From the NCBI GenBank assembly GCA_051439505.1, contig JBFRWI010000156.1, positions 1 through 11,714 of the forward strand: a DNA stretch of 11,714 nucleotides, read 5' to 3'. The position numbers and the translations under genes are program-made. This DNA is from Hormoscilla sp. GTDB lineage: Bacteria; Cyanobacteriota; Cyanobacteriia; Cyanobacteriales; Desertifilaceae. Below, in pieces: positions 7,904-11,714 of this stretch (its first letter is position 1; the number at the start of each line of letters is the position of its first letter). The notes under the pieces are model-generated. The model ran no database searches. It worked only from the letters and a program-made list of their open reading frames with translations, and was not told the origin of the DNA.

Positions 7904-9064
7904 TTACAGGAGTCCTCCGATCGCGATCGCCCCCCGATCGGCCACTCCCGGTTCTCCCAAAGACTGACGCATTTGCTGATAGTCAGAATGTATTTGCTGG
8001 CGTCGGACAGGGTTAACTAACAAGTCCATTCCTGCCGAGACGATCGCCTCTGGGGTAGCTTCCTCTTGGAGAAACTCGGGCACAATTTCTCTCATCTCTA
8101 CCAGGTTGGGGGGAGACATAAAGGGAATCGAAAATTTTAACAATTTGCGAGCAATAAAACCAGTGATCTGACTCACGCGGTAAAGCACTACCTGGGGGAC
8201 ATCCAAGAGAGCAAGTTCTAAGTTTACTGTACCAGATTTTGTAATTGCTAAGTCAGCAGACGCCAATACTTCTTCAGTCTTACTGCTGATTGTAGCATGA
8301 ATACCGTAATGGCCGATCGCCCGTTGAATGGGTTCGCGAAATTCTTCCCTAGACAGAGGAATCCAAAAATGAACATCCAATTGGGATTGAATCATTTTCG
8401 CAGCAGCAAAGATCGCGGGCAGCAAATATTTTAACTCTTGGCTGCGGGAAGCGGGAATGAGGGCGATCGCCTTTTTTTCAGCATCAATTCCCAAAGCAGT
8501 CCGGGCCTGAGTCCGAGAAGGAAATATTAGCATTCTATCTATTAAAGGATGACCCACCCAAGTCACATGGGCCCCATGTTCGGCAAAATAACGGGCTTCT
8601 TCTGGGAAAATAGCTAATAGCAAGTCGGTAATTTTCACAATTTGCGCAGTTTCCCGCTGCCGTGCCGACCAGACCCAAGTCTGAGGCGCAATGTAGTAAA
8701 CTATGGGTACTTGGGGCAGATAGCGACGGAGAAAAGTACCAATACTTAAATTAGGTCCGGGATAGTCCAGCAACACCACTAGATCGGGAGGATTTTCCCG
8801 CAAATATTTCTTAGTTTTCTGCTGAATCTTAAACGTCGGCAAAACATAAGGCAAAGATTCCCAAATGCCCACAGAACCAATGGCCGTCGTGTTCCCTAAC
8901 AACTGCGCCCCCGCTGCCGCCATGCGATCGCCCCCCAATGCGATAATTTCGAAAGAGTAACCTGCGGCCACAGCTTGCCGTTGTAGGGCCTCAATCAACA
9001 GGGCCCCTTGCAGATCCCCGGACACCTCTCCCGTACTGATAAAAATCCTCCGACCATTGTTCAT
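7904..9064 (-). CDS. lpxB: lipid-A-disaccharide synthase
   Basis: RIFISTGEVSGD, DYPGPN, YYIAPQ, FPEEA, VGHPL, PASRSQE, KSGTVNLE, PEFLQ motifs; lpx gene context. Confidence 0.97.
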   Translation of the reverse strand: MNNGRRIFISTGEVSGDLQGALLIEALQRQAVAAGYSFEIIALGGDRMAAAGAQLLGNTTAIGSVGIWESLPYVLPTFKIQQKTKKYLRENPPDLVVLLDYPGPNLSIGTFLRRYLPQVPIVYYIAPQTWVWSARQRETAQIVKITDLLLAIFPEEARYFAEHGAHVTWVGHPLIDRMLIFPSRTQARTALGIDAEKKAIALIPASRSQELKYLLPAIFAAAKMIQSQLDVHFWIPLSREEFREPIQRAIGHYGIHATISSKTEEVLASADLAITKSGTVNLELALLDVPQVVLYRVSQITGFIARKLLKFSIPFMSPPNLVEMREIVPEFLQEEATPEAIVSAGMDLLVNPVRRQQIHSDYQQMRQSLGEPGVADRGAIAIGGLL

Positions 9065-9126
9065 TGCTAATTGTTCATTGCTAATTGTTCATTGCTAATT
9101 GCTAATCGCTAATCGCTAATTGCTAA
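9057..9126. repeat. mixed heptamer array (TTGTTCA/TTGCTAA/TCGCTAA), 10 units
   Basis: Units read directly; the array overlaps the lpxB start codon. Confidence 0.9.
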
Positions 9127-9177
9127 TTGCCTATCAACGATTGTCCATTCTCAATGGGTGTGGTCATGCATTTGTTG

Positions 9178-9420
9178 CAGCGGGGGATCTCCCCTTCTTC
9201 ACTTCTTAATTATTTAAAAATGCGCAGGAGAACCCTGCCACAGGGCTCTCCTTGTGGAGTCGAAGTGAGCGATTTAGAGATTTACCTGACCCGGAGTTAC
9301 GCAAAAAGCGCCTCAGAACCGTTGTTTAACCCAAGTGGGGCGCTTTTTTTTGCGCAGTCCGGGCCGGGCATCCCTGGTTTCGCTTGGGCTTGTGTTACGT
9401 TGACTTTCCAAGCCCCCATG
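9178..9420 (-). other. highly structured segment: nested IS4-derived MITE-like repeat or ncRNA
   Basis: Hairpins at 9386-9415, 9268-9384 (117 nt) and 9226-9252; imperfect termini CATGGGGG / CAGCGGGGG. From memory it resembles a cyanobacterial IS4-end-related repeat (GGGGCTTGGAAAGTCAAC); not verified. Confidence 0.5.
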
Positions 9421-9439
9421 AACCAATATTGCTAAATAT

Positions 9440-9469
9440 AGTATAGCTAACGGGAGTGGAATTTGTCAA
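9440..9469 (-). promoter_or_regulatory. near-consensus sigma70 promoter inside the element, facing lpxB
   Basis: TTGACA (9469-9464), 18-nt spacer, TATACT (9445-9440). Confidence 0.65.
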
Positions 9470-9656
9470 GGGTTTAGGAAATTTTTTTCCCTCTCATGGG
9501 ATATTTATTTGATCTTCATATCACTTTTCTACCGTCACACAACGGGTGTGGCTCATTTGTAGTCGATCGGGAAGAAACCCGGGGTTCGAGAGGAGTTACC
9601 GGGTTTCATGCTCACGGGCCTGCCCCTCTACCAACCGGTGCAAGACCACACCCTTC

Positions 9657-10484
9657 TCAATTGTCCATTTTCAATTGTCCATTCTCAATTTTTCTTTTTC
9701 CGGGAATGGGACCGCGACGGCCTTCCGTAAGAGACGATCGCATGAACTGGTGCAGATGTTGTAATAGTTCGCTATCAGGTAGCAATTCTAGCTGTTCTAG
9801 GGCTTGACGCAAAGTATAATTAGAACGATAGAGTATTCTAAAGGCTTTTTTTAGCAATTCTAACTCCGAGGAAGTCAAACCAGCACGTTTCAGTCCCACC
9901 AGATTGAGCGATCGCACGCGAGAAGGATTTCCCTCCACTAGCATATAGGGTGGCACATCCCGATCGATCCGACTCATGCCCCCCACCATAGCCATGCTAC
10001 CAATATGGACGAATTGATGAATTCCCAACATGCCACCAATCACCGCCCGGGACTCAATTGTTACGTGACCTGCCAAGGCTACAGAATTAGCAATTACCAC
10101 CTCATCCGCGATCGCGCAATTATGGGCCACGTGAACGTAAGCCATCAGCAAATTGCCATTCCCAATGACCGTCATTTCTCCCGCCCGAGTTGCCCGGTTA
10201 ATCGTCACGTATTCGCGGATGCGGTTGCGCGAGCCAATTTTCACCAAGCTAACAGACCCATCATATTTCAGGTCTTGGGGTTCCAAACCAATAGCCGCCC
10301 CCGGAAATATTTTATTGTCTTCTCCAATTTCCGTCCAACCATCGATCGTTACATGGGGCCCGATCGTCGTTCCCGCCCCAATTACAGCATGTTCTCCAAT
10401 GACAGCATAAGGTGCCACCTGCACCGTTGGATGCAGCTTAGCACCTGGATGAATTGCAGCAGTTGGATGAATCAGTGTCGTCAT
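9657..10484 (-). CDS. lpxA: acyl-ACP--UDP-N-acetylglucosamine O-acyltransferase
   Basis: IHPTA hexapeptide repeats, PQDLKY, IREYVTINR, HVAHNC, IHQF, LNLVGLKR. ATG at 10484 with AAGGGA upstream. Confidence 0.97.
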   Translation of the reverse strand: MTTLIHPTAAIHPGAKLHPTVQVAPYAVIGEHAVIGAGTTIGPHVTIDGWTEIGEDNKIFPGAAIGLEPQDLKYDGSVSLVKIGSRNRIREYVTINRATRAGEMTVIGNGNLLMAYVHVAHNCAIADEVVIANSVALAGHVTIESRAVIGGMLGIHQFVHIGSMAMVGGMSRIDRDVPPYMLVEGNPSRVRSLNLVGLKRAGLTSSELELLKKAFRILYRSNYTLRQALEQLELLPDSELLQHLHQFMRSSLTEGRRGPIPGKRKIENGQLKMDN

Positions 10485-11109: not shown

Positions 11110-11714
11110 TCAATTAGACTGGCAAATTTTTTGGGCAAGTTTGACATGCAGTTGATGGCTGGCTTTGTAGGCCAGGTAATGAGCCACCGGAATGGTTCCC
11201 AGCAAACTCATATCCCCTATTAAGTCTAATAGTTTATGACGCACCGGTTCATTGGCAAATCGCAAAGGCGGATTCAGCCACCCCTCGGCACTACAAACTA
11301 AGGCATTATCCAGAGTACCACCTTTGATTAAGCCCCGATCGCGCAATTGCTGGATTTGGTCTGCCAAACCAAAAGTCCTCGCCGGTGCGATTTCCGTAGC
11401 AAAGTCCTCTGAGACTGGTTCCCAGCTGTGCCATTGATTGCCAATAGCAGGCACGGAAAAGTCAATTCCATAGGTGAAGCGAGTTTTGCTAGCGGGCATG
11501 GCACAGACGAAGGCGTCATCCCGCTGCACCCAAACTGGTTCTGCAATTTGGACCTGGGCCCGGGTGTGGTCAAAAGTAGTTGGAGAGGATCCCCCCCAAA
11601 CCCCCCCTTCCAAAAGGGGGGGGTTCCGGAAGCCCCCCTTTCTAAGGGGGGTTTGGGGGGATCCGGCGACTGGGGTATGCGATGTTCGATCGACGGGTTT
11701 TGACCACAGCTGGG
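11110..11714 (-). CDS. lpxC: UDP-3-O-acyl-GlcNAc deacetylase, 3' part, with in-frame insertion
   Basis: [44 protein letters not shown] motifs. Manual translation shows the frame is open to the window edge. Confidence 0.93.
11562..11710. mobile_element. GGGTGTGGTC-family miniature element inside lpxC
   Basis: GGTGTGGTCAAAA (11563-11575) and TTTTGACCACAGC (11698-11710) match 12/13 as inverted repeats. CTGGG recurs at 11554 and 11710, 156 nt apart; the putative TSD is cut by the window edge. Confidence 0.7.
11587..11664. repeat. 78-bp C/G-run palindromic dispersed repeat
   Basis: GGATCCCCCCCAAACCCCCCCTT...TTCCGGAA...AAGGGGGGTTTGGGGGGATCC, a near-perfect palindrome centred on 11624-11631. Confidence 0.85.

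Follow-up and report, generated by a model that had tools for sequence, protein, structure and literature searches.

A putative dispersed noncoding RNA gene with its own promoter, carried by an ISKra4-type miniature transposon between lpxA and lpxB of Hormoscilla

A structured RNA cassette between lpxA and lpxB

A self-contained noncoding RNA (ncRNA) cassette, consisting of a sigma70-type promoter, a predicted structured RNA of about 218 nt, and a terminator hairpin, is present in the stretch of Hormoscilla sp. DNA analyzed here (11,714 nucleotides, hereafter the window). Judged from its sequence, it belongs to a real and apparently undescribed family of structured RNAs. The best explanation, to which we give a rough probability of 0.55, is a free-standing, dispersed ncRNA gene that encodes a trans-acting, protein-binding RNA of about 220 nt and has spread as repeat cargo. 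The cassette's own promoter and terminator would yield an abundant, constitutively transcribed RNA, with a pseudoknot and rod core that would form a folded protein-binding surface (scaffold or decoy) acting in trans, and with a dispensable distal arm. Copies would move as DNA cargo of whichever repeat flanks them, and recombination between copies would shuffle them. Here, we infer both the transcription and the ends of the RNA. Protein binding is proposed because readings as a guide, an mRNA, or a leader were excluded (no partner protein was found). A structured bacterial RNA with covariation, a predicted pseudoknot, and independent expansions to 9–28 copies in two genera is rare, and this one, being small and tractable, can serve as an example for the abundant but unexplained repeat RNAs found in filamentous cyanobacteria.

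The cassette and the element carrying it comprise the following features:

9470..9504, minus strand: UP-like, A/T-rich region upstream of the promoter, conserved on copy comparison
9440..9469, minus strand: sigma70-type promoter TTGACA-N18-TATACT (TTGACA at 9469-9464, TATACT at 9445-9440)
9216..9433, minus strand: predicted ncRNA of about 218 nt, its start placed 7 nt past the -10 box
9421..9424, minus strand: 5' strand GGUU of a predicted pseudoknot, pairing with AACC at 9379-9376
9386..9415, minus strand: hairpin P1 (GGGCTTG/CAAGCCC), with a loop free in sequence and length
9351..9384, minus strand: rod-core 5' strand (P2, pseudoknot strand, P3-P5), nearly invariant
9303..9350, minus strand: distal arm, variable in copy diversity, with apical loop GGGUYAA (9332-9319)
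9268..9302, minus strand: rod-core 3' strand with an A-rich bulge and a conserved C-A mismatch (two-genus alignment)
9216..9252, minus strand: terminator-like hairpin and T run (12-bp stem 9252-9226, T run 9220-9216)
9156..9653: composite MITE of 498 bp that holds the cassette between ISKra4-type ends, inserted at the stop codon of lpxA (8-bp duplication)
9544..9653: inner MITE of about 110 bp that makes up the composite's upstream end (a further inverted end is at 9544)
9156..9177: terminal inverted repeat of the MITE, on the downstream side of the RNA (end matches)

An earlier, sequence-only reading of this region had predicted a promoter with a start near 9433, followed by a GGGCTTG/CAAGCCC hairpin, a 117-nt rod, and a 12-bp stem, and all four were recovered on the minus strand (hexamers as listed with an 18-nt spacer, hairpin at 9415-9386, rod at 9384-9268, stem at 9252-9226 and then the T run). 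The RNA length of about 250 nt given there is too long: the conserved unit, which begins near 9504 on the minus strand, stops with its T run (9216), and the final hairpin (9190-9178) belongs to flanking sequence that is not conserved. The promoter matches 11 of 12 consensus positions and is the best of five promoter-like sites between 7500 and 11714, although shuffled sequences also yield 5.0 such sites, so that the site count alone is not above chance. The rod does contain four G-U pairs on the minus strand and two on the plus strand, as had been counted. On either strand, this copy's region is folded much more stably than chance would predict (z of -5.0 for minus and -4.8 for plus; 0 of 200 shuffles as good), so that a single copy does not pick the strand, and the choice comes from the family.

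The neighbors of the cassette are lpxA, whose stop is at 9657, and lpxB, with which it is co-oriented. In congeners, the gap between these genes is about 25 nt; the insertion puts a terminator and a strong promoter between them. HIP1 sites and heptamer repeats mark the window as cyanobacterial DNA, the latter lengthening the start of lpxB (9056-9155) and the end of lpxA (9654-9700) relative to congeners.

The cassette as probable cargo of an ISKra4-type MITE

The carrier at 9156-9653 is an ISKra4-type MITE by its shared ends, target duplication, and empty site. The 8-bp duplication TTCTCAAT is found at 9148-9155 and 9654-9661, and the insertion site is empty in 4/4 congeners. It is likely that a miniature transposon brought this copy into place. 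Ends of the sequence GGGTGTGGTC were found 661 times, and 92 of the 172 pairs that are adjacent show 9-bp duplications. The same ends flank an ISKra4-like (Mutator-type) transposase, again with 9-bp duplications, in the genome of the window (G000) and in congeners G001 and G004. The best NCBIfam match of this transposase is ISKra4 (E 1e-52), at 180 bits against a cut-off of 205, and we hence name it "ISKra4-like". The resemblance to an IS4-associated repeat that had been noted earlier did not hold up, and an IS4-family MITE was rejected, as the ends flank the ISKra4-like gene; one IS4 gene between GGGTGTGGTC ends (contig C81) sits inside an ordinary MITE interior. The RNA is tied to no transposase: in the second genus that carries it (see below), other repeats flank the RNA and 23 of 24 loci are without these ends.

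Of the two possibilities raised at the outset, a nested MITE or an ncRNA, the latter stands, with a conserved structure and compensatory changes inside a mobile element. The cassette itself was rejected as a MITE, having no inverted ends or duplication of its own and flanks that vary on both sides. For 10 of the 25 copies in the window's genome, a right MITE end is located no more than 130 nt downstream (background, 1.3%), and an end on either side was found for 14/25, with a matching duplication at the window copy only; seven other copies end at a HIP1 site. As the RNA also occurs without these ends and the cassette has none of its own, the RNA gene is best regarded as cargo rather than as a MITE. 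The promoter is copied along with the RNA, which points to spread via DNA and would exclude retrotransposition. Resemblance of the apical loop to a MITE end was also considered and rejected (26% of shuffles equal).

ISKra4 is described as a member of the Mutator-like p-MULT 4 group in the accessible text of PMC3942029, which does not mention MITEs (0 matches). As far as that text goes, ISKra4/p-MULT 4 elements and Pack-MULEs share with the carrier their ends, 8–9-bp duplications, and non-autonomous copies with captured DNA (PMC3942029). Here, in contrast, the cargo is a whole RNA gene, and the RNA also exists without such ends. A Mutator-type MITE moving a whole RNA gene would be a bacterial counterpart of Pack-MULE cargo.

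Other ISKra4-type MITEs also have cargo, including a DUF4469 gene (G000:C174:29000-30404, C135:77105-77427, C178:1848-2246, and C180:12577-12825), which is Pack-MULE-like behavior. Separately, a MITE of about 150 bp from the same family lies within an lpxC-like open reading frame (ORF) of the window (11562-11712), and the frame remains open, which suggests an in-frame insertion in an essential gene.

Copies occur in two genera

A BLAST search of the same genome found 30 places. An exact 18-nt core word is present in 28 of these, 23 of them with both the -35 box and the T run, and the remaining two are remnants. One of the 28 core matches (C145) is broken. Four others are half copies cut by the ends of contigs; their sequences overlap, and they probably represent two loci, leaving about 26 loci in this genome. 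At G000:C145:44320 and C228:113290-113360, damaged copies were seen in which part of the RNA is swapped for near-identical palindromic heptamer filler. A repeat on C15 sharing 15 nt was rejected as a relative, being TPR coding sequence. Congeners G001 and G004 contribute two and three copies, respectively. No copy of the RNA was found in congeners G002 and G003, and with two of five congeneric genomes lacking it, the RNA is dispensable. No two of the 30 aligned copies (25 from the window's genome and five from congeners) are identical, and their mean identity is 88%.

A DNA search of 400 genomes of the order found homologs in one further genus of filamentous cyanobacteria, from another family. 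Model R1 counted 9 diverged copies in G210 and 15 in G367, in addition to one truncated copy each. These second-genus copies fall into four types. Three of them occupy orthologous positions in the two genomes, and the fourth has expanded recently. The core is identical between species whose lpxB DNA is 81%–86% alike, and the copies are mosaic, the four-gamete test failing for 61%–77% of pairs of sites separated by more than 10 columns. Short-read assembly could account for part of the mosaicism, and gene conversion for part of the copy uniformity.

A pattern search of the same 400 genomes matched 15, and among those inspected, only five carriers are real (six non-carrier loci were inspected in sequence and other non-carriers judged from match lines). 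Under strict filters, model R1 had no match in 150 genomes of the phylum, and model R2 matched only G210 among 150 genomes of the order, apart from three weak matches (two chance, one HEARO). Pattern searches, both exact and gapped, of metagenome and viral collections returned 0, 2, 54, 38, and 0 stretches, of which the 2 and the 92 are chance; the sole model match among them (L131) falls in coding sequence and was rejected. Plasmid and phage collections gave no match to the RNA. Since these searches are limited in sensitivity, the family is to be read as not found elsewhere, rather than absent. The Rfam scan that had been suggested earlier gave no match for the RNA in the window or in six second-genus loci (E ≤1); weak miRNA matches to other hairpins were all that Rfam scans otherwise returned. 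No description of the RNA was found in the literature on cyanobacterial ncRNAs, MITEs, ISKra4, DUF29, and IscB/HEARO, mostly outside subscription journals, or in the accessible texts, supplements aside (e.g., the structure lists of PMC12873609), of PMC6520454, PMC7313196, PMC12873609, PMC12918029, and PMC13565253.

Promoter and RNA structure are conserved

TTGACA is kept in all 26 copies of the window's genome that have upstream DNA and in 24/24 second-genus copies, and the promoter spacer is always 17 or 18 nt. Positions 1, 2, 4, and 6 of the -10 box never vary in the former, whereas spacer bases differ by 25%–35%; a -10 box was parsed in 21 of the 24 second-genus copies. The same promoter style is found at a tRNA-Glu gene. 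Elsewhere, a leucine-rich-repeat gene whose promoter resembles that of the cassette is present in G001 in at least 12 near-identical copies (e.g., L019:1450-3055), and 12 tRNA genes form a cluster at G000:C183:5741-11838.

Among the 30 aligned copies, the 5' core has a diversity of 0.004 and the 3' core one of 0.04, compared with 0.24–0.36 for the distal arms and 0.10 for the apical loop. Second-genus copies have an altogether different distal arm. The family also assigns the strand. Across 43 consensus pairs, the promoter strand has 132 G-U cells at 10 positions and zero A-C; one fixed C-A mismatch lies outside this set, so the fair wobble count is 10 to 1. Consensus energy is -65.7 on the promoter strand versus -46.4 on the other, while single-copy folding prefers the promoter strand in only 19/30. 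The compensatory changes that had been proposed as a check are present: with both genera aligned (37 of 54 full-length copies, fitted to the model, which does not include the pseudoknot), two-sided changes are seen at 16 of 42 pairs (0/500 shuffles; slid controls ≤5). In the terminator, 5/11 pairs covary in the 30 first-genus-set copies, where double changes are mainly found there, and 8/11 in the 37 two-genus copies. The outer rod helix has such changes at three of five pairs (two-genus set), and the rod core at only 2 of 16, so that core pairing rests on wobble changes.

In the helix that would pair the 5' GGUU with AACC of the internal loop, two of the four pairs change on both sides, in one lineage, the two G-C pairs are invariant in 37/37 copies, and the fourth pair is unpaired in 14/37. 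This helix crosses the outer rod helix and would form a 5' pseudoknot, predicted here from covariation that is a single event. A second pairing of 4–5 bp, from linker to terminator loop, is possible, with noisy parsing. There is no conserved ORF in the 30 copies, where lengths and frames vary and some have none; a type I toxin mRNA was accordingly rejected.

These results make it very doubtful that the family is a passive repeat, that is, a once- or never-functional palindrome copied by MITEs and kept uniform by gene conversion. Palindromic repeats abound in the genome, and their copies keep their symmetry too; this, like the mosaic copies, remnants, and truncated copies, would fit such an origin. 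However, the wobble pairs are strand-biased, conservation upstream is of the promoter type, covariation extends across two families, and three copy types are kept at orthologous sites in two genomes. By analogy with multicopy repeat ribozymes, the compact invariant core with its A-rich bulge, fixed C-A mismatch, and pseudoknot, along with the possible linker-to-loop pairing, could instead belong to an undescribed type of ribozyme that cleaves or ligates itself. We consider this quite improbable, given that Rfam ribozymes are unmatched at E ≤1, that the AAGCCC-AAGCG run, which we take to be a pistol-like motif, is without its GCG in the second genus, and that a strong promoter and terminator already set both ends. 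Known small ribozymes were rejected, with no Rfam match at E ≤1 and no conserved catalytic motif.

Contigs from RNA runs

The cassette sequence makes up a small share of 11 RNA runs, which were found using this sequence. Eight of them were examined as assembled contigs, from which neither the start and end nor the strand or level of a transcript can be read. In six of the eight runs, which come from relatives, contigs cover the body and no promoter bin. Summed depth in run X4 is 276–636 over the body, 15–21 over the promoter, and 9 past the T run. Run X1 has a flat, DNA-like pattern and a 13-kb contig spanning the empty site, five runs have contigs passing the terminator, and one contig extends upstream into unlike sequence. 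Taken together, the contigs fit a discrete transcript as a weak hint.

Neighboring genes and possible partners

Among the ORFs scanned at RNA loci (71 selected from the window's genome and 36 from the second genus), there was no shared neighbor gene. The next downstream gene is co-oriented in only 9/24 and 9/22 cases. A portable cis-regulatory leader (aptamer plus terminator) governing the gene downstream, here lpxB, would account for an aptamer-like domain ahead of a terminator, the co-orientation of lpxB, and the contigs that pass the terminator. It is nevertheless exceedingly unlikely, as downstream genes are unrelated and convergent in 15/24 and 13/22 cases. A search for antisense or guide targets in the genome found none, nor any match longer than 18 nt outside the copies and remnants.

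Type III toxin-antitoxin loci (ToxIN/TenpIN/CptIN) combine a promoter, a pseudoknotted RNA, and a terminator, sometimes with a nuclease-like gene behind. By this analogy, the RNA might be a type III-like antitoxin, with a leaky terminator ahead of the toxin gene, whose ancestral partner was an Rpn nuclease or a DUF29 protein, with solo copies acting in trans. In the second genus, two of three and three of five Rpn (PF12784) genes in G210 and G367, respectively, are at RNA loci (L260, L265, L277, and L333), and DUF29 follows the RNA in 4/24 loci. Two Rpn neighbors, however, are sisters 74% identical, one in opposite orientation, and thus likely reflect one event, and the four DUF29 genes are near-identical; the Rpn and DUF29 neighbors are probably single ancestral events. 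None of 28 copies in the window's genome lies within 1.5 kb of tblastn matches to Rpn, DUF29, Uma2, or DUF433 (divergent Uma2 genes were found by Pfam at two of its RNA loci), and G002 has 13 Rpn and 16 DUF29 matches, yet no RNA. Unlike type III loci, the family has neither tandem RNA repeats nor a constant toxin gene, and we regard an antitoxin role as improbable.

Comparison with HEARO and the IscB omega RNA

The best non-family, non-coding match of model R2 is a HEARO RNA (E 0.007 in 1 of 150 genomes, about chance level). Like HEARO, the present RNA is about 200 nt long, cyanobacterial, pseudoknotted (as predicted), and multicopy, and it resembles HEARO above chance in its first hairpin (GGGGCUU..AAGCCC, with ACC behind it), in a stem starting with GGGAUGC, and in a GGGUUAA loop. 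Three 5' blocks are collinear with 28 distinct HEAROs, scoring 9.0, 0.2, and 4.2, compared with 4.3, -2.8, and 2.3 for shuffles and 5.7, -1.1, and 2.6 for controls made of rRNA pieces. A guide-adaptor-like hairpin with a nexus-like ACC after it scores above both controls, over short matches to HEARO sequences that are related to one another, and apical GGGUYAA is present in 8/28 HEAROs (shuffles, 0.8; antisense, 2). The G-rich hairpin arm is presumably also a generic IS200/IS605 end motif. Core blocks of the RNA do not match the 28 HEAROs, and whole-RNA alignment gives z >3 for only 0–2 of 28, near controls, with z values overstated because HEARO copies are kin.

The likeness is below Rfam detection: RF02033 had no match at E ≤1 in the window or in six second-genus loci, whereas a control locus scored 117 bits. 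No RRXRR gene was among the scanned neighbors of RNA loci. Two IscB genes are present in the window's genome, and their RNA gives no alignment with this one. There is no variable 5' guide, as only about 15 nt, related between copies, separate the -10 box from GGUU. According to the accessible sources, the defining omega features are a guide, a downstream iscB, and a nexus pseudoknot (PMC9640706; Rfam RF02033). In contrast, the present RNA has no 5' guide, IS200/IS605 end, or downstream iscB, has its own promoter and terminator, and differs in core and pseudoknot topology, and it is thus not classed as an omega RNA.

We tentatively entertain the possibility, which we consider somewhat less than even, that an IscB omega/HEARO RNA gave rise to the 5' domain, the guide, transposon end, and nuclease gene having been lost. 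It is unlikely that the whole is an escaped omega/HEARO RNA that dropped guide and nuclease, gained a tRNA-strength promoter and a terminator, spread itself as cargo through two cyanobacterial lineages, and took on a new partner or a role as an anti-nuclease decoy. Omega ancestry, if true, would be a new fate for OMEGA systems, with the RNA retained and the protein lost.

A related idea is that of a guide-less omega mimic, a cut-down IscB/HEARO scaffold used by the host as a decoy to load IscB/IsrB and blunt RNA-guided homing. The R2 match, the collinear 5' blocks, and the apical motif would all be in line with it, and IscB reads the first hairpin and nexus stem of the omega RNA (accessible text of PMC9640706). 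RRXRR genes number zero in G210 and G367 and are present in 11 of 17 other genomes of that family, which can be counted in its favor; on the other hand, these two carriers without IscB leave nothing for a decoy to titrate. The unmatched Rfam model, core blocks, and IscB RNAs of the window's genome, the near-control whole-RNA alignments, the different pseudoknot topology, and the presumably generic hairpin arm also count against a decoy, and we think such a role improbable as well.

Comparison with other known systems

The preferred reading, a free-standing ncRNA gene spread as repeat cargo, can also be set beside other RNAs. SRP RNA, 6S RNA, Yfr2, and IS110 bridge RNA are stand-alone rod-like or multicopy RNAs with stable-RNA promoters. 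The window's genome has separate ffs and 6S genes with no significant similarity to this RNA. SRP RNA was rejected (score 28 versus 25.8 for shuffles, 49 of 200 as high; no Rfam match), as was derivation from 6S or rRNA, similarity not being significant; RNase P is above shuffles only via flanking heptamer repeats and was likewise rejected. Separately, a tandem-duplicated SRP RNA gene, one copy with a damaged S domain, is found at G000:C93:6375-6670 and also in G002 and G004, and tandem 5S rRNA arrays with 1.4–2.5-kb spacing in G002 (C2, C5, and C7) are likely eukaryotic host DNA in the assembly.

An IS110 bridge/seek RNA was rejected, as the window's own assembly (93% complete) contains 0 DEDD recombinase genes; in congeners, the IS110 DEDD recombinase occurs both with and without the RNA. 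Rejection of a TnpB omega-RNA was based on the lack of alignment (9 of 14 tnpB loci examined) and on the RNA ending in a terminator. Five long TnpB-like frames of 556–611 aa were observed in G000 (C1, C35, C125, C174, and C213), and a different tnpB, also on C125, contains a group II intron. A retron ncRNA was rejected because the consensus has no 5'-3' pairing and the genome's retron has a different RNA. At G000:C213:2590-4691 (L106), a retron-type reverse transcriptase lies behind two tandem msr-msd RNA copies that differ in the long hairpin, the second with its own promoter.

The nearest precedent in kind, set beside our RNA by description only, is the tandem-repeat RNA of Trichodesmium erythraeum, a repeat-array ncRNA of about 260 nt with seven tandem repeats at one locus that, according to the accessible text, accounts for 44.7% of primary reads (PMC4143802). 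As described there, it is likewise multicopy, separately promoted, ORF-free, and from a filamentous marine cyanobacterium, but its repeats are in tandem at one locus, whereas the copies here are dispersed (PMC4143802).
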